This document shows, in pieces, positions 1,973-54,406 of a stretch of DNA of 54,406 nt. Position numbers and translations under genes: made by a program. This stretch comes from a virus (Duplodnaviria > Caudoviricetes). The stretch spans positions 1 to 54,406 of IMG/VR virus record IMGVR_UViG_3300034072_001783; one strand, given 5' to 3'. Position 1 is the stretch's first letter. Every line of letters starts with the position of its first letter. The notes beneath the pieces were generated by a model. The model was not told the origin of the DNA and did not search any database. It saw only the letters and a program-made list of their open reading frames with translations.

Positions 1973-3091
1973 ATGGAACGACTTAGAAAACTTATAAAAG
2001 AAGTATTATCTACTCCACCAAAACAAGATTCTTGTAACTGTGGATGTCATAGTTGTGAAAATGTTGGTAATCCGGGTGTAGTACTAAATGAAAGTATAGT
2101 TAAAAAGGATATACTATCGGAAAATCTGCGATATCACGTGGATAATAAACTCCCACTAACCGAAAACACGTTCCGCTACGGTTCTGAAGCTTTTCTTAAT
2201 TTATGGGCAGAAGCTCGCGCTTTGTATTTACGTGAAATAATTCATGTTAATGAAGATGATAAGCAAATTTTAGAGGAAACTGATTTAGGTAACTTTGGTT
2301 TATATGAGGGTGTTAAAGTACCTTTAGATTTACCCATGGCATATGAAAACCAATATGAGCCTATCCTAGAAGATATAGCCATATATGGTACTATATATGA
2401 AGCAGTAAATATAGAAAATTCATATAAAATAGATGCTATTGAATCAGATGGGGTTAGCAATAATTTTATATTCATAGATAAACACGGGATAAAAAGAAAA
2501 CTTCAATTTATTAAAGGAAATAGTGTTAAGCTATTATGGTTTGATCCTAAATCTCAAGAATGGACAACTGAAAGAATGCCTAGTAAATATGAAGATGAAA
2601 AAGTGATGAACACATTTGGTATGATACTTGTTAAAGTAATATTACCAAAATATGGCTCATTCTATTTTAAAGCATTAAGTGAGGCCCGTTATCGTTTATT
2701 TAGAGCACTTATCTATAATAATTTAGATATCTCTAAATATGAAATGGATTATGATGATGAGGCTAGAACTATTGAAGTGTATAAAATAGATACCCTAACA
2801 GAAGAAGGTAAAAAGAAAAATCCTCCACTTAATAAACCAAAACGTGGTGGATCTAAAAAATTCTATGTTTATGTTCGTAATCCAAAAACTAAAAAAATTA
2901 AAAAAGTTAGTTTTGGAGACACAACAGGCCTATCTGTAAAAATTAATGACCCTAAAGCTAGACAAGCTTTTGCTAAACGACATAAATGTGCTCAAGCTAC
3001 TGATCGTACGAAAGCGCGATATTGGTCATGTAGAATCGGTCGTTATTGGAAACAATTAGGAGGTTCAAAAAACTTTAGCGGTTTTTGGTAG
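1973..3091 (+). CDS. Multi-module hypothetical protein (leader, Cys cluster, inserted domain, basic C-terminal KKVSFGD/RHKC/YWSC module)
   Basis: 372 aa ORF; starts MERLRKLIKEVL; CNCGCHSC cluster; many L/I-x-E sites separate the modules. Confidence 0.7.
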   Translation: MERLRKLIKEVLSTPPKQDSCNCGCHSCENVGNPGVVLNESIVKKDILSENLRYHVDNKLPLTENTFRYGSEAFLNLWAEARALYLREIIHVNEDDKQILEETDLGNFGLYEGVKVPLDLPMAYENQYEPILEDIAIYGTIYEAVNIENSYKIDAIESDGVSNNFIFIDKHGIKRKLQFIKGNSVKLLWFDPKSQEWTTERMPSKYEDEKVMNTFGMILVKVILPKYGSFYFKALSEARYRLFRALIYNNLDISKYEMDYDDEARTIEVYKIDTLTEEGKKKNPPLNKPKRGGSKKFYVYVRNPKTKKIKKVSFGDTTGLSVKINDPKARQAFAKRHKCAQATDRTKARYWSCRIGRYWKQLGGSKNFSGFW

Positions 3092-3108
3092 GAAATCGGC
3101 CCTACCAA
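3085..3108 (+). promoter_or_regulatory. Perfect 8-bp hairpin directly upstream of the homing endonuclease late promoter
   Basis: TTGGTAGG (3085-3092) / CCTACCAA (3101-3108), abutting TATTTATA at 3109-3116. Confidence 0.55.
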
Positions 3109-3121
3109 TATTTATAATAAA

Positions 3122-3760
3122 ATGGCTTATGTTTATCTTATAACCAATGTTACAAATGGAAAAAAATATATTGGTTCTTCTAGAAAATCTCAAATAGATG
3201 AAAATTACTATGGTAGTGGTAAAGCAATAAAAGATGCTTTAAAAAAATACGGTAAAAATAATTTTACAAGAGATATACTTTGGCAAGGTGAAGGAGATGC
3301 TCGTGGTGTAGAATCTCAATGGTTAGAATATTTTAATGCTTCTACAAATCCTCAATTCTATAATATGACAAATGATGCTAGAGGAAATGGACTCCATAAA
3401 GAAGAGACCAAACTTACTGTTAGTGAGAAACTAACTGGAAGAAAATTCTCAAAAGAAATATGTGAAAAAATATCCAAAGCAAAAACTGGAAAACCCAACC
3501 CTAAAAAAGGAAAACCAGATGGCCCCAAACCTAGAGTATCTGAAGCCCATAAAGGTAGAACCAGCCCAAATAAAGGCAAAGGAACCCCAGTAGCCCTTTA
3601 TACAACCTCTGGAGAATATCTCAACACATACTCAAATTATACTCTTCTAGCTCTTGCTCTTAATATAAACCCAGAAACAGTAAGATGTCATTTAGTAGGA
3701 AAAGCAAATACAATATGTAACAAGCAATATAAAGTTAAATATGTATTAGGTGATGGATAG
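3122..3760 (+). mobile_element. Free-standing GIY-YIG homing endonuclease with NUMOD3-like repeats
   Basis: YVYLITNVTNGKKYIGSS (GIY-YIG), YYGSG, FYN motif, H/S-x-E-T-K..S repeats, C-terminal NUMOD1/HTH-like segment. Confidence 0.9.
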
Positions 3761-4988
3761 ATTGGATAAACTTACTAATGAAGTCCTACAAGAGGAAAAA
3801 GAAAAACGTGACAGATGTTTACGTATTGCTGACCGTAAATTCAAAAAACCATCCGCTTACAAATCTGGTGCTGTAGTTAGATGTCGTAAAGGAGATATTT
3901 GGAAAGGTTTAAATGAATATAATAATGTAGGTCCTTCTACCCCTAAAGTATATATTGTAAAAAATGACGGGACTTATAAAGAAGTCCCAATTAAATTACT
4001 ATCTAAAATACCTAATTTAATATATGATATGGGTGGAGGTGAAACTAATTACTACCCTGAAAAAAATATTGTAATAGTAGATAACATCCCCATAGAACAA
4101 TTCGCTAAAGAACCAGGTGAGATAAGAGATGAAAAGATATATGTTGAATATAATTTAAATCAACCTTATAGCTTTCCAAAAGCAAATAAAATTATAGCTG
4201 CTCAATTAGTATATAACTTAGATAATGTTGAATCATTTGCTACAACAGTAAATAATTCACTTAAAGATAATGGTACCTTTGAATTTTACAGTGACGTAAT
4301 GATAAAAAAGGATAAAGACTTTTTAAACTACTTATACAGTGAATATGGGTTTGGTTTCCCTAAAAATTTAAGTCAATTTAAACAAGAACCAATTCAATTA
4401 AAAAAAGGAAAATTTGTTGAACCTATTATATCTTACATTTACAATGTAACAGATGTTGATGGAAATACATCAAAAATATCAGTTACTAAAGAAGGTAGGT
4501 GGTGGAAATATAATAAAATTGAAGGTAATATAAAATTCAAACCTGTTAAATGGAGTATTGAGCCTGAATATAAATATAACGATATAACTCCAAGTAAGGA
4601 GAATGTTTTAAATACTTTTTCCAAAGCATTAGGAACTGATATTATAGATTTTAAAAAATTAAATGAAAATTTAAAAGAAACCGATGACCCTCAATCAGGT
4701 AAAGCAGCACCTTACGGCTCAGGATATTCTAAATTAAAAGACATAATTAGAGAAATCATCCAAGAAGATGAATCTTTAAGAAAATGGTTCAAACGCTCAG
4801 GTACCCCAGGTAAAGAAGGTGGTTGGGTTGATTGTAACGCACCAATTAAAAAAGATGGTAAAATAGTAGGATATAAACCTTGCGGGAGAAAAAAAGGAGA
4901 AAAACGTGCAAAATACCCTTCATGTCGTCCTACACCTGCTCAATGTAAAACACCTGGTAAAGGTACTAAATGGGGAAAAACAAAATAA
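3750..4988 (+). CDS. Modular protein: basic Cys modules flanking an inserted class I SAM-dependent methyltransferase-like domain
   Basis: N-terminal RDRC..PSAYKSGAVVRCRK; central IYDMGGGE (motif I), IVIVDN, YNLN, LKDNG; C-terminal LRKWF..GGWVDC..PCGR..YPSCRP. Confidence 0.6.
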   Translation: MMDRLDKLTNEVLQEEKEKRDRCLRIADRKFKKPSAYKSGAVVRCRKGDIWKGLNEYNNVGPSTPKVYIVKNDGTYKEVPIKLLSKIPNLIYDMGGGETNYYPEKNIVIVDNIPIEQFAKEPGEIRDEKIYVEYNLNQPYSFPKANKIIAAQLVYNLDNVESFATTVNNSLKDNGTFEFYSDVMIKKDKDFLNYLYSEYGFGFPKNLSQFKQEPIQLKKGKFVEPIISYIYNVTDVDGNTSKISVTKEGRWWKYNKIEGNIKFKPVKWSIEPEYKYNDITPSKENVLNTFSKALGTDIIDFKKLNENLKETDDPQSGKAAPYGSGYSKLKDIIREIIQEDESLRKWFKRSGTPGKEGGWVDCNAPIKKDGKIVGYKPCGRKKGEKRAKYPSCRPTPAQCKTPGKGTKWGKTK

Positions 4989-4989
4989 T

Positions 4990-5430
4990 ATGGATAACTT
5001 TGATTTAAAAAAATATTTAGCAGAAGGTAAATTATATGAGGCAGCTATGGCTTGTCCTTTACCAACCCAAGATCTAGAACTTAACACTCGAAATAGAGAT
5101 TCAGCTATTAAAGCAGACTATATTAAATATGGTCCTTTAAATGTTGATGAACCTGGAGACTATTGGGATGAGTTAGCAGAACATTGGAATACAACAGTTG
5201 AAGCTGCTAAACAATCTTTATGTGGCAATTGTGCTGCGTTTGATATTTCTCCAAGAATGGAAGATTGTATGCCTGGACCATTACAAGATGAAGATGGTAA
5301 ATTAGGGTATTGTTGGATGCATAGTTTCAAATGCCACTCAGCTCGTACTTGTAGAACATGGGCTAAAGGTGGTCCTATAGTTAAAGATACTATATCTTAT
5401 GAGTGGCAAGAACGTAAAGAAAATGATTAA
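4990..5430 (+). CDS. Cys-rich hypothetical protein (possible metal/Fe-S binding)
   Basis: Start reassigned to ATG 4990 (MDNFDLKKYLAE), just after the upstream stop. CGNC...GYC...KC...TC..W pattern. Confidence 0.65.
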   Translation: MDNFDLKKYLAEGKLYEAAMACPLPTQDLELNTRNRDSAIKADYIKYGPLNVDEPGDYWDELAEHWNTTVEAAKQSLCGNCAAFDISPRMEDCMPGPLQDEDGKLGYCWMHSFKCHSARTCRTWAKGGPIVKDTISYEWQERKEND

Positions 5431-5869
5431 ACTTATAGACATATTAAAAGAAATCAACCAACCATCTCCTCCGGATGTTTTGTACCATTTTACAACACCT
5501 GAAAATTTTGTTAAAATATTAAATTCTGATCGTTTAAAAGCTCATTCCAAATTCAATCAAATTTCATTCACTGAAGACCCAGATTTATGGGCATTCCAAG
5601 AATTTCCCGACTCAAACCAAGAAATAGGAGTTCGTTTAGAATTTGAAACGGATAGTTTACCTCCTGTAAAACCATTTACATTCCAAGGAGCACCTGGTGA
5701 ATTCTTAGAACACGAAAAAGAATGGATAACTACTTCAGGAGATATAACAGATATAGAAGGTAGAATTATGGGTTCAGGTACTCTAGAGATAACAGCCCTT
5801 GAATATTGGAAAAAATACTTACAAGATAATATACCAGGACACATATATACCAGAATAAAATTTATATGA
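5423..5869 (+). CDS. Putative ADP-ribosyltransferase-fold protein with N-terminal leader
   Basis: Start at ATG 5423 (MIKLIDILKEI). The LYHFT...ISFT...EHEKEW triad fits the H/R-S-E ART signature. Confidence 0.55.
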   Translation: MIKLIDILKEINQPSPPDVLYHFTTPENFVKILNSDRLKAHSKFNQISFTEDPDLWAFQEFPDSNQEIGVRLEFETDSLPPVKPFTFQGAPGEFLEHEKEWITTSGDITDIEGRIMGSGTLEITALEYWKKYLQDNIPGHIYTRIKFI

Positions 5870-9441: not shown

Positions 9442-11022
9442 ATGAGCCAAGATATAAAACAAATATTAAGAGAAGAATACATAAAGTGTGCAACAAACCC
9501 TGTATACTTTATGAAAAAATATTGTTACATCCAACACCCCCAAAGAGGAAGAATCCAATTCCACTTATACCCCTTCCAGGAAAAAGTCTTAAAACTATTT
9601 CAAGATAACCCATATAGTATAATTTTAAAATCAAGACAATTAGGAATATCCACTCTTGCTGCTGGCCATGCTTTATGGTTGATGGTCTTTTATGAAAATA
9701 AAAACGTACTTGCTTTAGCTACTACTCAAGCAACTGCACGTAATCTAGTTTCCAAGGTACAATTTATGTATGAAAATCTTCCATCTTGGTTAAAGATAGG
9801 ACACGAAGAAAATAATAAACTTTCTTTAAAACTTAAAAACGGATCTAAGATACAAGCCAAATCATCTAGCCCAGATGCCGCACGATCAGAAGCAGTATCA
9901 TTGCTAATAGTTGATGAGGCTGCTTTTATTGAAAATATTGCAGAAACATGGGCCTCAGCTCAACAAACGTTAGCAACGGGTGGTGGAGCTATAGTGTTAT
10001 CCACTCCCTATGGTACTGGTAATTGGTTCCACCAAATGTGGGAAACTGCTGAAAATTCCTTGGATAGTGAATTCCTCCCAATTAAATTACCATGGCAAGT
10101 TCACCCAGAAAGAGATCAATCTTGGAGAGATAAACAAGATGTTCTTTTGGGTGATCCTAGATTAGCTGCTCAAGAATGTGATTGTGACTTTAACACCTCA
10201 GGAGATACGGTTTTTTATAATGAATTCATGGAATTCTATGAGAAAACTTATGTTAAAGATCCCTTGGAAAAGCGAGGAGCTGACCGTAACTTATGGATAT
10301 GGGAACCTGCAGATTATTCTCGCAATTATATGGTGTTAGCAGATGTTGCTCGAGGAGATAGTAAAGATTTTTCAGCATTCCATGTGATGGATGTTGAAAA
10401 TAACACTCAGGTTGGAGAATATAAAGGACAGATAGGAACAAAAGAGTTTGGTCATTTATTGGTAGGAATATCAACGGAATATAATAATGCTTTATTAGTG
10501 GTTGAAAATGCAAGCATTGGGTGGTCTACAATACAAACTATATTGGAAAGAGGTTATCAAAATTTTTACCATTCACCAAAAAGTGGAGAAATTAAAGCCG
10601 ATTCATATTTTAATGAATATTCTGACATATCTAAAATGACCCCTGGTTTTACAATGAACACCAGAACTAGACCAATTTGTATTAATAAATTCCAAGAATC
10701 TATTTCCGACAAAGGAGTAATATTCCAGTCTAGGAGACTACTTTCTGAAATGAAAACTTTTGTTTGGAAGAATGGTAGAGCAGAAGCCCAATCAGGATAT
10801 AATGATGATTTAGTTATGTCTTTTGCAATGGGGCAATATGTTAGATCAACTGCTCTACAATTTAATAAATATGGTGAAGATATGTATAAAAGCATGTTAA
10901 ATAGTACCACTTCAACAAATACCCCATATTTTGGAGGATATTCAGCTAATACACAAGATAATCCTTGGAAAATGGATAATCCATATTCTAATGGAAAAGA
11001 AGATATTAGATGGTTACTCTAA
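9442..11022 (+). CDS. terL: Terminase large subunit (T4 gp17-like)
   Basis: LYPFQ, KSRQLGIST Walker A, LLIVDEAAF Walker B, STPYG, ADVARG..D nuclease, DDLVMS. Confidence 0.95.
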   Translation: MSQDIKQILREEYIKCATNPVYFMKKYCYIQHPQRGRIQFHLYPFQEKVLKLFQDNPYSIILKSRQLGISTLAAGHALWLMVFYENKNVLALATTQATARNLVSKVQFMYENLPSWLKIGHEENNKLSLKLKNGSKIQAKSSSPDAARSEAVSLLIVDEAAFIENIAETWASAQQTLATGGGAIVLSTPYGTGNWFHQMWETAENSLDSEFLPIKLPWQVHPERDQSWRDKQDVLLGDPRLAAQECDCDFNTSGDTVFYNEFMEFYEKTYVKDPLEKRGADRNLWIWEPADYSRNYMVLADVARGDSKDFSAFHVMDVENNTQVGEYKGQIGTKEFGHLLVGISTEYNNALLVVENASIGWSTIQTILERGYQNFYHSPKSGEIKADSYFNEYSDISKMTPGFTMNTRTRPICINKFQESISDKGVIFQSRRLLSEMKTFVWKNGRAEAQSGYNDDLVMSFAMGQYVRSTALQFNKYGEDMYKSMLNSTTSTNTPYFGGYSANTQDNPWKMDNPYSNGKEDIRWLL

Positions 11023-11030
11023 TATTTATA
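11023..11030 (+). promoter_or_regulatory. Putative late promoter TATTTATA
   Basis: Intergenic, 18 nt before the portal ATG. Confidence 0.65.
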
Positions 11031-15737: not shown

Positions 15738-16349
15738 ATGAGTAAGCAAGTATTAATAGAGACTCAAAATTTCATTTCCACTTTATCTCCCTTAACCGAA
15801 GGAAAAACCTCAGAACGTGGTAATCCCATTGTTGAAGGAATTTTAGCCACAGCTGAGGTTAAAAATGGTAATGGGAGATATTATAAAAAAGATTTGTGGG
15901 AACGCGAGATAGATAAGTATATGGAGTCTGTAAAAGAAAAGCGCGCTCTAGGAGAACTTGATCACCCTGAATCCTCTATAATTAACCTTAAAAATGTATC
16001 ACACAATATAGCTGAGTTATGGTGGAATGGAGATAACATAATGGGTAAAATAGAAATTCTACCCACTCCCTCAGGAAACATACTTAAAGCTTTACTTGAT
16101 AGTGGAATTAAAGTAGGTGTATCCTCACGTGGTATGGGTTCATTGAAAGAAGTAAATGGAATACTAGAGGTACAAGATGATTTTGATCTATTATGTTGGG
16201 ACTTCGTTTCTACACCATCCAACCCCGGATCATGGATGTCTCCACTTAAAGAAGGAATTGATTATTCAAATCTCCCAAACCCCTATTTAAATGTTCAAAA
16301 AGTAATAACGGATATTCTTTGTTCTCAAGGTAGTTGTCCTATATTTTAA
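15738..16349 (+). CDS. gp21: Prohead core protease (T4 gp21-like)
   Basis: NGNGRYY, ALGELDHP, GVSSRGMGS, WDFVSTPS catalytic motifs. Confidence 0.95.
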   Translation: MSKQVLIETQNFISTLSPLTEGKTSERGNPIVEGILATAEVKNGNGRYYKKDLWEREIDKYMESVKEKRALGELDHPESSIINLKNVSHNIAELWWNGDNIMGKIEILPTPSGNILKALLDSGIKVGVSSRGMGSLKEVNGILEVQDDFDLLCWDFVSTPSNPGSWMSPLKEGIDYSNLPNPYLNVQKVITDILCSQGSCPIF

Positions 16350-19546: not shown

Positions 19547-19549
19547 ATA

Positions 19550-19557
19550 TATTTATA
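19550..19557 (+). promoter_or_regulatory. Putative late promoter TATTTATA
   Basis: Immediately after the terminator, 14 nt before the phoH ATG. Confidence 0.65.
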
Positions 19558-29923: not shown

Positions 29924-29954
29924 AACTCTTAAATATTTATAAATAAAACATTAG

Positions 29955-36237: not shown

Positions 36238-36276
36238 AAATCCCATCTTTAAATATTTATAACAAAACATTGGTGA

Positions 36277-49985: not shown

Positions 49986-51350
49986 ATGACATTACAAAGT
50001 ATTGACCAATATGGACCACAATTCCAAATAAAAGTTATTTCATCACTTCTTACTCATAAAGATTTTCTTGTAAATATACATGATATTCTTGATGAGAATG
50101 ATTTTGGAAGTGATGCAAATAAATGGATCATTAAAAATATCCTAAAATATTACTCTAAATACCATACTACTCCTAGTATGGATATTCTAAAGGTAGAATT
50201 GAAAAAAACATCAAATGAGGTATTACAAATCGCTATTAAAGAACAATTAAGAGCAGCCTACCAAGCCTCAGAAGAAGATTTGGAATATGTTAAAGAAGAA
50301 TTTTCTACTTTCTGTAAAAACCAACAATTAAAAAAAGCCCTTCTCAAGTCTGTTGATTTGCTTCAAGCAGGTGACTATGATTCCATTAAATTAATGGTTG
50401 AAGGCGCTTTAAAAGCAGGTCAAGATAAGAACATAGGACACGAGTATAATAAAGATGTTGAATCAAGATACCGTGAAGATAATCGAGTTGTTATACCTAC
50501 ACCTTGGCCTCAAATAAATGAACTTCTACAAGGTGGATTAGGAAATGGTGATTTTGGGCTAATATTTGGTAATCCTGGAGGAGGAAAATCTTGGTCACTA
50601 GTAGCACTAGGGGGTTTTGCTGTTAAACTAGGGTACAATGTTGTTCATTATACTCTGGAGTTAGGAGAAGACTATGTTGGAAGAAGATATGACGCTTTTT
50701 TTACACACATCCCCGTAAATAAAATACTTGAAAACCGAGATAAAGTAGAAAACGCCTTAGAAACAATAGAAGGTGAACTCATCATTAAAGAATTCCCAAC
50801 AGGTAGAGCAACTATTACAACAATTGAAGCTCATATTCAAAAACTTAAATCTTTAGGAATTGTACCTGATTTGATTATTATTGACTATGTTGACCTTTTA
50901 AAATCAAAAAGAAATTCTACTGATCGTAAGTATGAAATCGATGATATTTATACTAGCACTAAAGGTCTAGCTCGTGAACTTAATATTCCTGTTTGGAGTG
51001 TATCACAAGTTAACAGAGCAGGATCAAAGGATGATATAATTGAGGGTGATAAGGCAGCAGGATCCTATGACAAAATGATGATTACGGATGTTGCAATCTC
51101 ACTCTCCAGGAAGAAAGAAGATAAAGTAAATAATACAGGAAGATTCCATATAATGAAGAATCGCTATGGTATGGATGGGGTTACCTATCAAATTAAAGCG
51201 GATACTTCAACGGGGCATTTTGAAATTACCCAAGAGTATGATGAAGATTCTCAACCTTCCCCCTCTCCCTCTACTTCACCCAGCTCACTTAATCTAGACA
51301 AATTTGATAAAGAACATCTATCTAAGAAATTTTTTGAATTAAACACATGA
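49986..51350 (+). CDS. gp41: Replicative DnaB-like helicase (T4 gp41-like)
   Basis: GNPGGGKS Walker A, YTLEL, IIDYVD, SQVNR, MKNRYG. Confidence 0.92.
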   Translation: MTLQSIDQYGPQFQIKVISSLLTHKDFLVNIHDILDENDFGSDANKWIIKNILKYYSKYHTTPSMDILKVELKKTSNEVLQIAIKEQLRAAYQASEEDLEYVKEEFSTFCKNQQLKKALLKSVDLLQAGDYDSIKLMVEGALKAGQDKNIGHEYNKDVESRYREDNRVVIPTPWPQINELLQGGLGNGDFGLIFGNPGGGKSWSLVALGGFAVKLGYNVVHYTLELGEDYVGRRYDAFFTHIPVNKILENRDKVENALETIEGELIIKEFPTGRATITTIEAHIQKLKSLGIVPDLIIIDYVDLLKSKRNSTDRKYEIDDIYTSTKGLARELNIPVWSVSQVNRAGSKDDIIEGDKAAGSYDKMMITDVAISLSRKKEDKVNNTGRFHIMKNRYGMDGVTYQIKADTSTGHFEITQEYDEDSQPSPSPSTSPSSLNLDKFDKEHLSKKFFELNT

Positions 51351-52297
51351 TAACAGAATTAAGACCCCACTATAAACCATTTGAATATCAAACAGCATTT
51401 GAATTTTATAAAGATCAACATAGAGCCCATTGGCTTGCAGATGAAGTACCTCTCTCCTCAGACTTGAATGATTGGAAACTTAAACTTACTGAAAGTGAAA
51501 AAAATTTGATTGGTAATATTTTAAAGTCATTTGCCCAAACAGAGACGTATGTAAACGATTATTGGTCAACAAAAGTGGCTGTATGGTTTCCTAAACACGA
51601 AATTAAAGCTATGGCGTGTGCATTTGCTGATTTTGAATCGATTCATGCTGAGGCTTATGCTCGTTTAAATGAAGAATTGGGTCTTGATGATTTTGAGGCC
51701 TTTATGGAAGACGAGGAAGCAAAAGCTAAAATCGATCGTTTAGTTGAACTGCCTGGAGATACATTGCATGAAAAAGCACTTTCACTAGCTATATTCTCTG
51801 CATTTACAGAAGGTGTAAATTTGTTTTCTTCATTTGCCGTGTTGATGTCTTTTCAATTAAGAAATTTAATGAAAGGAACAGGGCAAATTGTAGAATGGTC
51901 TGTGCGTGATGAATCACTTCACTCAAAAGCAGGATGCTGGTTATATAGAACCTTATTAGAGGAAGATCCAACATTAGACACCCCCGAATTAACACAAGCA
52001 ATTTATGAAGCTTGTGATTTATCTGTAAAATTAGAATTCGATTTTATAGAAAAAGCATTTGAAATGGGTGATATTGAAGGACTAACTAAAGAACAACTAA
52101 AAAATTTCATTAAAGAACGAGCAAATCAAAAATTAGTTGAATTAGGTTATAATCCAATTTACAACGATATTGATCCTAACCTTTTAAAACAAATGGAATG
52201 GTTCGGGCATTTAACAAGTGGTAAAACACACCAAGATTTCTTTGCAAATAGAGTAACCGATTATTCAAAATCAACCGCTGACTGGTCAGACCTATGA
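51347..52297 (+). CDS. nrdB: Ribonucleotide reductase class I beta subunit
   Basis: W...E..L..D, ESIHAEAY, EGVNLFSSF, VRDESLH, DFF. Confidence 0.95.
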   Translation: MITELRPHYKPFEYQTAFEFYKDQHRAHWLADEVPLSSDLNDWKLKLTESEKNLIGNILKSFAQTETYVNDYWSTKVAVWFPKHEIKAMACAFADFESIHAEAYARLNEELGLDDFEAFMEDEEAKAKIDRLVELPGDTLHEKALSLAIFSAFTEGVNLFSSFAVLMSFQLRNLMKGTGQIVEWSVRDESLHSKAGCWLYRTLLEEDPTLDTPELTQAIYEACDLSVKLEFDFIEKAFEMGDIEGLTKEQLKNFIKERANQKLVELGYNPIYNDIDPNLLKQMEWFGHLTSGKTHQDFFANRVTDYSKSTADWSDL

Positions 52298-52830
52298 AAC
52301 CAGAAAAACTACGTAATATAATTAAAGAAGAACTTCAAAAATATTTTGAAATTCATCCATATTCTCTTGAAGATGAGCTTATAATGGAAACTGAAATTAT
52401 GCTTGGAGAACTTCTCAATCCTGATAATGCTCTTTCATATGAAAAAGTGAGTAAAGGATTTTACACTTATGAAGATCCTAATGGGGTTAAATTTTTTGTT
52501 CGAGCAGCTTATGTTCCTGAACCACAAAATTACTTTGAATTTAAAACAGGGTGGTTTGATCAAAATGGGAAAGCAACTTATGAACCTTCTGTACCATACG
52601 GGAACCAAGAAACCTCAGCCTTAGATATCAATTCCCGTTCAGATACAGTAGCAAAAATTTATAGAGATGAAATTTTACCTTTTTTCAAACAACAAACATT
52701 AACAGATACAATGGTTATAAAACCCATTTCTTCAAGTAGAATGAAGTTTGCTGAACGTTTAGTTAAAAAATTTACACCTGAAGACTTTACAATAGACTTT
52801 AAAAATAGAGAAATAACAATAAAAAAATGA
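52294..52830 (+). CDS. Leader-bearing hypothetical protein inserted between nrdB and nrdA
   Basis: MKPEKLRNIIKEEL leader; ATGA overlaps on both sides. Confidence 0.75.
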   Translation: MKPEKLRNIIKEELQKYFEIHPYSLEDELIMETEIMLGELLNPDNALSYEKVSKGFYTYEDPNGVKFFVRAAYVPEPQNYFEFKTGWFDQNGKATYEPSVPYGNQETSALDINSRSDTVAKIYRDEILPFFKQQTLTDTMVIKPISSSRMKFAERLVKKFTPEDFTIDFKNREITIKK

Positions 52831-54406
52831 GCATACAAGTAGATACAACAAATTGGATTAAGGGTAAACACTACCCTGAGTGGATGAACGAGATTTCATT
52901 ATCAATGATCTCAAAAGGGTATTTGTTACCTGATGAAGATGTTTATGGAGCATTTAAACGTGTTTCAAGATCAGCAGCTAAACGTTTAAAGCGTAAAGAT
53001 TTACAACCATACTTTTATGAGGCAATGGTTAAAAATTGGTTATGCTTAGCTTCACCTGTTCTCTCAAACATGGGAACAGAACGTGGAATGCCTATTTCAT
53101 GCTTTGGAATTGACACAGATGATTCAATTGAAGGAATTGCTCTAGCCAACTCAGAATTAATGCGTTTATCATCTCAAGGTGGTGGAGTAGGAATTGGTGT
53201 ATCTAGAATCAGAGGAAGAGGAAAACCAATTTCTGGAAATGGAGTATCTGAAGGGGTAGTTCCATGGATTAAAATTTACGATTCAACAATATTAGCTACC
53301 AACCAAGGTTCAGTTAGACGAGGGGCAGCCTCAGTTAACCTACATATTAACCACCCAGACATTGAAGAATTTTTGATGATTCGACGCCCAAAAGGTGATG
53401 TTAATAGACAATGTCTAAATATGCATCAATGTGTTGTAATTGATGATGAGTTTATGAATCGAGTTGAAGAACGCGATCCAAAAGCAATTAAATTGTGGGG
53501 TGAAATTTTAAAAACACGTTTAGAGACAGGTGAACCTTATATTATGTTTGAGGACAATGTAAACAATGCAAACCCTGAAGCATATAAAAAGAACAATTTG
53601 CATGTTTCAATGACGAATATTTGTAGCGAGATAAGCTTATACACAGACGAACTTCACTCTTTTATCTGTTGTTTATCTTCCCTTAATCTCGCACGTTGGG
53701 ATGAATGGAGCGAATATAAATTTGAAAATGGAATGACATTACCCGAACTAACTTGTTGGTTTTTGGAAGGTGTATTGCAAGAATTTATTGATCGTTCCAA
53801 AAACATTCGCTTTATGGAAAACACCTATCGTTCTGCATCTAAAGGTAGAGCAATTGGTATTGGAGTACTTGGGTGGCACACCTTCCTCCAAGAAAAAAAT
53901 ATCCCATTTGCAGGATTACAAGCAAATTCTTATACAAGGATCATGTTTGATTTTATTGAAAAAGAAGCATTAAAAGCATCTCGTGACCAAGCAGAATTGT
54001 ATGGTGAACCTGAATGGTGTAAAGGAACAGGTTTAAGACATACACATCATTTAGCAATTGCCCCAACAGTTTCAAATGCACACATTTCAGGAGGAGTATC
54101 CCCCTCAATTGAACCAATCCCCGCTAATGTTTATAATTTAAAAACAGCTAAAGGTACATTTATCAAGAAAAACCCAACATTAGAGCGCCTACTTGAATCT
54201 AAAGGATATAACATTGACAGTGTTTGGGATCAAATTTCTAAAGATAAAGGTTCTGTTATGGGACTACCTGATTATATTTTAACGGATGAGGAAAAGGAAA
54301 TATTTTTAACATTTAAAGAAATCAACCCATTCGAGATAGTTCGTCAGAATGGAATCCGACAAAAATATGTTGACCAAGCAGTTTCCCTTAATTTAACATT
54401 TGACCC
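52827..54406 (+). CDS. nrdA: Ribonucleotide reductase class I alpha subunit, 3'-truncated (absent from ORF track)
   Basis: My translation from ATG 52827: MSIQVDTTNW...ASPVLSN...PISCF...GGGVG...RRGA...GEPY...TNICSEI...CCLSS...LAIAPT...SIEP...VDQAVS; open to the window end. Confidence 0.95.
   Translation, partial: MSIQVDTTNWIKGKHYPEWMNEISLSMISKGYLLPDEDVYGAFKRVSRSAAKRLKRKDLQPYFYEAMVKNWLCLASPVLSNMGTERGMPISCFGIDTDDSIEGIALANSELMRLSSQGGGVGIGVSRIRGRGKPISGNGVSEGVVPWIKIYDSTILATNQGSVRRGAASVNLHINHPDIEEFLMIRRPKGDVNRQCLNMHQCVVIDDEFMNRVEERDPKAIKLWGEILKTRLETGEPYIMFEDNVNNANPEAYKKNNLHVSMTNICSEISLYTDELHSFICCLSSLNLARWDEWSEYKFENGMTLPELTCWFLEGVLQEFIDRSKNIRFMENTYRSASKGRAIGIGVLGWHTFLQEKNIPFAGLQANSYTRIMFDFIEKEALKASRDQAELYGEPEWCKGTGLRHTHHLAIAPTVSNAHISGGVSPSIEPIPANVYNLKTAKGTFIKKNPTLERLLESKGYNIDSVWDQISKDKGSVMGLPDYILTDEEKEIFLTFKEINPFEIVRQNGIRQKYVDQAVSLNLTFD

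Follow-up and report, generated by a model that had tools for sequence, protein, structure and literature searches.

The 54,406-nucleotide contig considered here (IMG/VR record IMGVR_UViG_3300034072_001783; hereafter the window), which comes from an uncultured marine T4-like myovirus, raises the question of why a segment within one of its proteins should resemble a separate small gene 50 kb away. The open reading frame (ORF) at 1973–3091, ORF 1973, encodes a protein of 372 residues (P0001), and that at 52294–52830, ORF 52294, encodes a protein of 178 residues (P0002) between the ribonucleotide reductase genes nrdB and nrdA. An initial annotation, made by eye from the sequence alone, had proposed that positions 2402–2803 within ORF 1973 are homologous to ORF 52294. 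We find that the two copies are homologous and have a common predicted fold, that both the segment in ORF 1973 and the gene between nrdB and nrdA are insertions, and that the domain occurs in free and fused forms. In our view, the data as a whole are probably best explained by a portable GNAT-like module, present as a cassette in ORF 1973 and as a distant, leader-bearing paralog in the nrd operon. The features compared are as follows.

1973..3091, + strand: ORF 1973 (P0001, 372 residues), consisting of a leader, an N module, an inserted cassette and a C module
2354..2803, + strand: predicted GNAT-like domain of the insert-type subfamily, residues ~128–277, enclosing 2402–2803
52294..52830, + strand: ORF 52294 (P0002, 178 residues), free-standing paralog that overlaps the nrdB stop at its start and the nrdA start at its stop
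52366..52827, + strand: predicted GNAT-like domain of the ORF-52294-type subfamily, residues ~25–178

Homology and predicted fold of the two copies

The coordinates in the initial annotation are correct: 2402–2803 corresponds to residues 144–277 of P0001, and 52294–52830 is the complete 178-residue ORF. Relatives of P0002 were taken at E <= 0.01, giving 136 among 160 candidates of 97–312 residues; nearly all are ~178 residues long and unnamed, and 50 of them, picked across the identity range, make up alignment A2. For the insert, residues 123–282 of P0001 served as the query of an exhaustive phmmer search, which yielded 15 proteins at E <= 0.001. Two of these (P0138 and P0140) were removed as repeat proteins matched over ~45 residues in eight and five stretches, respectively. 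The 13 that were kept comprise close embedded copies, three free-standing proteins of 175–201 residues (P0134, P0137 and P0139) and other fusions (P0136, P0141, P0142 and P0143). The alignment of the insert family, A3, has 18 members.

Comparison of the two families as hidden Markov models (HMMs) using hhalign bears out the proposed homology, with probabilities of 97–98%, E values of 1e-11 to 1e-12 and flat controls. The 13 insert-type segments aligned to A2 over 119 columns at 21% identity (probability 97.8%, E = 1.3e-12, score 80), and the full-length rows of A3 gave a similar result (97.2%, E = 3.8e-11). The reversed template scored 13.5, and 100 column permutations scored 12.9 ± 2.6 with a maximum of 25.9. 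When the insert-family HMM was run against the 336 six-frame ORFs of the window it matched ORF 52294 at E = 4.2e-6, with the runner-up at 0.74. The same HMM matches L029, a locus with an embedded ORF-52294-type copy, at 1.6e-7, and the ORF-52294-family HMM matches the insert-family fusions P0143 (2.9e-5), P0142 (9.4e-5) and P0141 (1.7e-4). The five anchor pairs that had been matched by eye are all paired with each other in both hhalign alignments, and two core motifs, [N/D]-T-x-x-K-I-(5)-[I/L]-P and K-x-[I/L]-S-x-x-R, are common to both subfamilies. The limits first given for the domain required revision: 2402–2803 does lie within it, but the IYE site is not its start, as the homology begins ~15 residues earlier, at approximately residue 128.

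Some results weigh on the other side. Pairwise alignment with shuffling statistics, a check that the initial annotation had itself put forward, was non-significant with both programs used. BLASTP of P0001 against P0002 gave 13 identities in 48 for the domain segment (E = 4.0), its best segment being the N-terminal leader (7/11 identities, E = 0.30). The Smith–Waterman score of the ORF 1973 segment against P0002 was 32, compared with 31.3 ± 5.5 for shuffled sequences, 800 of 2000 of which reach that value; with softer gaps the alignment made by eye does emerge, at a score of 51 compared with 40.8 ± 7.6, which is reached by 220 of 2000 shuffles. The ORF-52294-family HMM did not find ORF 1973 among the 336 six-frame ORFs, and searches of Pfam, PHROG and PDB sequences with both families returned no usable match. 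It might be argued that these are two unrelated small α/β domains of like composition and strand–helix order which align by chance or through convergence. This explanation is very improbable and already largely refuted by the distance of the profile score from its shuffled and reversed controls, by the specificity of the insert-family HMM for ORF 52294, by the divergent members that connect the families in both directions and by the common motifs, which are in register. On the evidence of the profiles, the homology of the ORF 1973 stretch and ORF 52294 is confirmed, and it is visible by profiles only. The domain family has at least 150 members in public metagenomes and is held by no curated library.

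Both copies were modelled using AlphaFold2 without templates and from separate alignments. The predicted local distance difference test (pLDDT) and predicted template-modelling (pTM) scores were 91.6 and 0.88, respectively, for P0002 and 86.1 and 0.81 for the insert. The order of elements is the same in both models (helix, five strands, helix, strand, helix, two strands), with one additional N-terminal helix in P0002. The mixed sheet, the helices α3 and α4 and the order β2-β3-β4-α3-β5-α4-β6 of the GNAT core are present in the models, so that the GNAT-like α/β fold which had been raised as a possibility is now predicted for both copies. Structure comparison placed 17 entries in the top-50 lists of both, and the end points on 3f8k_A match the hhalign register. 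A Foldseek search of the PDB gave no match at E <= 0.001 for either model, its weak rows being rich in GNATs. The GNAT motif A is the acetyl-coenzyme A (acetyl-CoA) pyrophosphate-binding sequence Q/R-x-x-G-x-G/A at β4-α3. A regular-expression scan for it was negative in all 120 ORF-52294-family proteins and all 13 insert-family segments, which counts against a GNAT-like assignment. Taken together, the models suggest that both copies are probably one hitherto undescribed α/β domain of ~135–150 residues with a GNAT-like fold that lacks the acetyl-CoA motif.

Insertion sites and descent of the domain

The arrangement of ORF 1973 around the domain is as follows.

2126..2338, + strand: N module, residues 52–122, with the C-terminal end VPLDLPM; kept in phages immuto and Melnitz
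2339..2818, + strand: cassette, residues 123–282, missing in most relatives; at the DNA level the indel extends from ~2340 to ~2800
2804..3088, + strand: C module (KPKRGGSKKFYVYV...), phrog_7595

The alignment of P0001 to proteins of two cultured phages, immuto and Melnitz, is split in two, and residues ~123–282 have no equivalent in them. A scan of viral contigs found at least 574 stretches related to ORF 1973, from the best 80 of which 79 ORFs were reconstructed; the GNAT-like domain is present in two of the 79 (L035 and L036). Presence and absence among relatives thus identify the copy in ORF 1973 as an insert. The slot lies between VPLDLPM and ...KPKRGGSKKFYVYV and is empty in five related ORFs (L038, L039, L041, L079 and L111). 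Elsewhere its contents, as labelled by eye, are a Zn ribbon (L037), an SH3/KOW-like unit together with a helical unit (L049), an Ala/Gly-rich hydrophobic stretch (L087), a ParB-like unit (L084) and helical units (L063, L081, L066, L047, L069 and L100). Alignment at the DNA level shows flanks that are near-identical between phages on either side of the indel, and for this reason the cassettes would most likely be exchanged by homologous recombination at the flanks. Host proteins of the immuto type are found both with the cassette (L036 and P0129) and without it (L111 and immuto). Weighing against a history of exchange, the identity to L036 is 53.5% in the N module, 63% in the cassette and 66% in the C module; as the cassette does not exceed the C module, lateral gain and repeated loss are indistinguishable by this measure. 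We nevertheless think it probable that the ORF 1973 domain occupies a hypervariable in-frame slot between two conserved modules, as one cassette among many alternatives.

A second slot, within the N module, contains an insert labelled by eye as SH3/KOW-like in P0132 and L105. A GIY-YIG homing endonuclease gene (phrog_314, 1.3e-31) directly follows ORF 1973 at 3122–3760. It was considered as a carrier of the cassette and rejected, as only seven of 80 related loci have it at this site and the cassette is found in none of these seven.

The second copy is flanked by the following genes.

51347..52297, + strand: nrdB, ribonucleotide reductase beta
52827..54404, + strand: nrdA, ribonucleotide reductase alpha, continuing past the end of the window

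Relatives of P0002 are encoded at 32 viral loci. A gene of this family stands between nrdB and nrdA in 12 of them, all at 60% identity or more, and the other 20 have no nrd gene within 2.5 kb. The same gene order (recombinase, exonuclease, helicase, nrdB, nrdA) is found in immuto, the closest cultured relative, where 9 nucleotides, and no gene, separate nrdB from nrdA; by this comparison, ORF 52294 is an insertion relative to immuto. A tblastn search with ORF 52294 gave no match in 50,697 phage records, and no cultured phage record with a P0002 relative was found. Eight of the 20 loci away from nrd genes were inspected for context: in L019 and L020 the gene lies between a sheath-proximal ORF and a T4_baseplate gene, in L025 before QueD/QueE-like genes and in L016 near an HNH endonuclease. 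In L024 (2465–4876) a distant relative of ORF 52294 directly precedes a class II (B12-type) ribonucleotide reductase, a second and independent adjacency to this type of enzyme.

A maximum-likelihood tree of 40 domain sequences, several rows of which are long-branched, separates two subfamilies by a 100/100 branch, and for this reason we regard the two copies in the window as ancient paralogs and not as products of a recent duplication. The initial annotation had envisaged one mobile domain present both as an insert and as a stand-alone gene. Both forms do exist, but a single recently moved domain is not what the deep branch and the 21% identity indicate. Free and embedded forms occur on both sides of the tree: P0134, P0137 and P0139 are free-standing members of the insert type, and the ORF-52294-type domain is found within long ORFs of 863 to more than 1303 residues at five of the 32 loci (L026–L029 and L031), together with cytidylyltransferase-like, Zn-ribbon, HExxH and nucleotidase-like modules. 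The embedded copies of L026, L028 and L029 are nested among free-standing ones (97/95), and the tree requires four changes between the free and embedded states, two of which are forced by well supported branches. In the embedded ORF-52294-type copies the HMM match begins at position 18–25, from which it follows that the first helix of P0002 is a leader missing from these copies. The idea of a stand-alone leader fusion is upheld in this respect, the stand-alone genes having an N-terminal leader and the embedded copies being without it. We consider it likely, on balance, that the domain is a portable module circulating among marine T4-like myoviruses.

Several observations on individual members may be recorded. 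The long proteins at L026 (1364–3955), L028 (1196–5104) and L029 (896–3526) string together cytidylyltransferase-like, Zn ribbon, DUF6934, ORF-52294-type, HExxH, nucleotidase-like and DUF5661 modules, with short linkers that repeat between modules, for example 'YLQEARYNKFLKES', which occurs twice in L026. L030 (1884–2929) has tandem ORF-52294-family paralogs, the upstream one having 29% identity to the family profile (hhalign 99.9%). In P0137 the sequence after the domain (residues ~170–201) resembles a second leader ('MKLKEILKQV...'), which may be a leader fused to the protein or the result of reading through into the following gene. A third subfamily, considered for the 'ISLSKDNAVE...' modules of L026 and L029, was not established (hhalign 10–24%).

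Possible functions of the module

The features that bear on a role as capsid cargo are as follows.

1973..2002, + strand: N-terminal leader of ORF 1973, residues 1–10, hydrophobic at 4 and 7 and with I-K-E at 8–10, assigned from its sequence and the T4 capsid targeting rule
2795..2803, + strand: L-T-E, the junction motif that closes the ORF 1973 domain on its C-terminal side
52294..52365, + strand: leader helix of ORF 52294, residues 1 to ~24, with I-K-E at 10–12; absent from embedded copies of its subfamily, as judged from the HMM match starts
15738..16349, + strand: prohead protease of the T4 gp21 family (Peptidase_S77; phrog_207, 1.2e-59; PF03420, 3e-33, 115 bits compared with a cutoff of 27)

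One account of T4 (PMC9026906) states that gp21 cleaves after L/I-X-E, that the first ten residues of IPIII are enough for targeting to the head, and that positions 4 and 7 of the leader are important for targeting and positions 8 and 10 for processing. By that rule, the leader of P0001 (L4, L7 and I8-K9-E10) is in the T4 capsid targeting register; P0002 has the same pattern two residues further on. The motif h..hh.E is found at the N-terminus of six of the 55 genes in the window, compared with ~0.8 expected from its internal rate, and in 78 of 114 full-length relatives of P0002. In 117 of 120 members of the P0002 family another [L/I/M]-x-E stands ahead of the first strand. Of the 18 embedded copies, 17 carry [LI]xE at their C-terminal junction, compared with 24% of random background windows of 18 residues. 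The phage also encodes the gp21-family protease that would cut at L/I-x-E. From the leader, the junction motifs and the presence of this protease, we infer that proteins tagged with the leader would be loaded into the prohead, as are the T4 internal proteins, and cut after L/I-x-E, and that the freed modules would then enter the host with the DNA. The terms 'cargo' and 'polyprotein' in the initial annotation would imply such loading, together with cutting at IYE and LTE. We take this to be the most likely function of the module, while holding it with less than even confidence.

A number of observations speak against such a role. One of the six window genes with the leader motif is the terminase, which weakens that signal, and the embedded junction copies are homologous, so that 17 of 18 does not represent 17 independent events. 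ORF 52294 overlaps both nrdB and nrdA and is translationally coupled in the nrd operon, a poor fit to a late capsid protein, and the two N-terminal helices of P0002 have pLDDT values of 89–94 and may therefore be part of the fold and not a removable propeptide. On the + strand a box, ATATTTATAA, lies 5–45 nucleotides upstream of at least 14 structural-gene starts (for example 3107–3116, 11021–11030, 19548–19557, 29932–29941 and 36252–36261). In reverse complement, its core reads as the T4 late box TATAAATA, which has 29 occurrences on both strands of the window compared with 13.7 ± 4 expected, and ATATTTATAA is a candidate late promoter of unusual sequence. This box is not directly before ORF 1973 or ORF 52294, a point that counts against a capsid role in the case of ORF 52294. 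Finally, no virion proteome for carriers of the domain was found in the literature. The literature search likewise returned no description of capsid-targeting leaders or of such modular proteins in marine T4-like phages, the capsid-targeting papers that were found being concerned with T4 or giant phages.

Two other functions have to be weighed against cargo. The module could act as a minimal GNAT enzyme and acetylate some target in the host, in the manner of the anti-CRISPR AcrVA5 or the TacT/AtaT toxins. The predicted fold would accommodate such an enzyme, but motif A ([QR]xxGx[GA]) is absent from all 133 sequences scanned and the α1-α2 pair between the first strands is missing from the models. 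No acetyltransferase Pfam family was matched at E <= 1 by P0001, P0002 or the 50 members of A2, or at E <= 10 by the 18 members of A3, and we consider an active acetyltransferase distinctly unlikely. Rather than transferring acetyl groups, the domain more probably uses its conserved K...[N/D]T..K...R residues to bind a ligand or a target in the host.

The other possibility is a cytoplasmic module that acts together with nucleotide enzymes in the infected cell, either in ligand binding or in regulation, in which case there would be no packaging or cutting and the acidic L-x-E stretches would be plain linkers. The position of the ORF-52294 type between nrdB and nrdA and the distant relative before the class II reductase of L024 favour this explanation, as do the cytidylyltransferase-like fusions (P0003 at 4.2e-6; L026 and L028 weakly, at 0.005–0.007), the NT5C-like nucleotidase fusion in P0141 and the conserved basic residues which, by eye, stand where GNATs hold the CoA phosphates. 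It accords less well with the 20 of 32 loci that are away from nrd genes, in contexts that include tail genes, QueD/QueE and an HNH endonuclease, with the Zn-ribbon and HExxH modules of the same long proteins, and with the enrichment of leader and junction motifs. We regard it as a rather doubtful alternative that nonetheless deserves to be kept in mind.

Returning to the cargo function, a wider and decidedly tentative proposal may be made. ORF 1973 would be a conserved capsid-cargo protein whose in-frame cassette slot, with its conserved recombination flanks, accepts interchangeable modules (GNAT-like, Zn ribbon, SH3-like, ParB-like or a hydrophobic segment), and the same modules would also exist as leader-tagged stand-alone genes between core genes such as nrdB and nrdA. 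Loading into the head by a T4-type leader, cutting at L/I-x-E by the head protease and injection with the DNA would then amount to plug-and-play delivery of effectors. If modules are indeed packaged, the T4 internal-protein idea would be widened, in that some of the ocean's most abundant phages would inject proteins from a modular repertoire that recombines, and there would be concrete candidates for proteomic and anti-defence tests. If they are not, this is still a clean case of domain cassette exchange together with a mobile gene within the ribonucleotide reductase operon. In either case, matched relatives demonstrate that a protein very common among marine phages takes alternative ready-made modules into its in-frame slot, and such phages shuffle ready-made protein modules.

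Other genes of the window may be noted here. Its long ORFs are all on the + strand, and Pfam matches include a T4-type terminase, the gp20 portal, the gp23 capsid protein, two sheath-like genes, gp32, a RecA/UvsX-like protein, a 5'-3' exonuclease and a DnaB-like helicase. The ORFs at 3750–4988 and 5423–5869 open with leader-like peptides (MDRLDKLTNE... and MIKLIDILKE..., respectively); the first has a 'GKAAPYGSGY' motif that also occurs in the long proteins at L027 and at L028, and it matches phrog_727 and, weakly, DUF5872.

Comparison with known systems

The nearest curated family is DUF6934 (PF22028), which matches neighbouring modules in L026 (32.4 bits) and L028 (36.3 bits) above its gathering cutoff of 27. 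For ORF 52294 it was also the Atlas lead, with 11% of one cluster carrying it, and it is the top weak family of the insert family (two of 18 members of A3, best E = 0.02). At the Pfam gathering cutoff there was no match for P0001, P0002 or any of the 50 members of A2. With hhalign, segments of DUF6934 type alone gave E ~0.05, and a probability of 94.7% was reached only with a known insert-type copy in the query; the sequence link to DUF6934 is suggestive only.

The likeness to GNATs is one of predicted fold. The β-β-β-α-β-α-β order spans the whole domain in both copies, and ~100 residues of each superpose on many GNATs with a root-mean-square deviation of ~3.3 Å. In contrast to GNATs, the helices of both copies stand before the sheet and not after strand 1.

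Among cultured phages, immuto (immuto35A_171), Melnitz and HTVC008M have a two-module protein whose N and C modules (the latter being phrog_7595) are common to ORF 1973, with 51% identity to the immuto protein over 54% of the query. The cultured proteins are without the cassette, whereas the window protein has ~155 extra residues in the slot.

The comparison that bears most directly on function is that with the T4 internal proteins IPI–III and Alt. By the rule in the T4 account cited above, ORF 1973 resembles these proteins in the short leader at its N-terminus, which is hydrophobic at residues 4 and 7 and has L/I-x-E at 8–10; varied payloads behind a common leader and a phage-encoded gp21-family protease are further points of likeness. 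ORF 52294 departs from the T4 pattern in having the motif two residues further on and in belonging to the nrd operon, and packaging and cutting are here predictions from the motifs and the protease. The two systems also differ in architecture: in the phages described here payload modules also occur as in-frame fusions, both within long multi-module proteins and within the cassette slot of ORF 1973.
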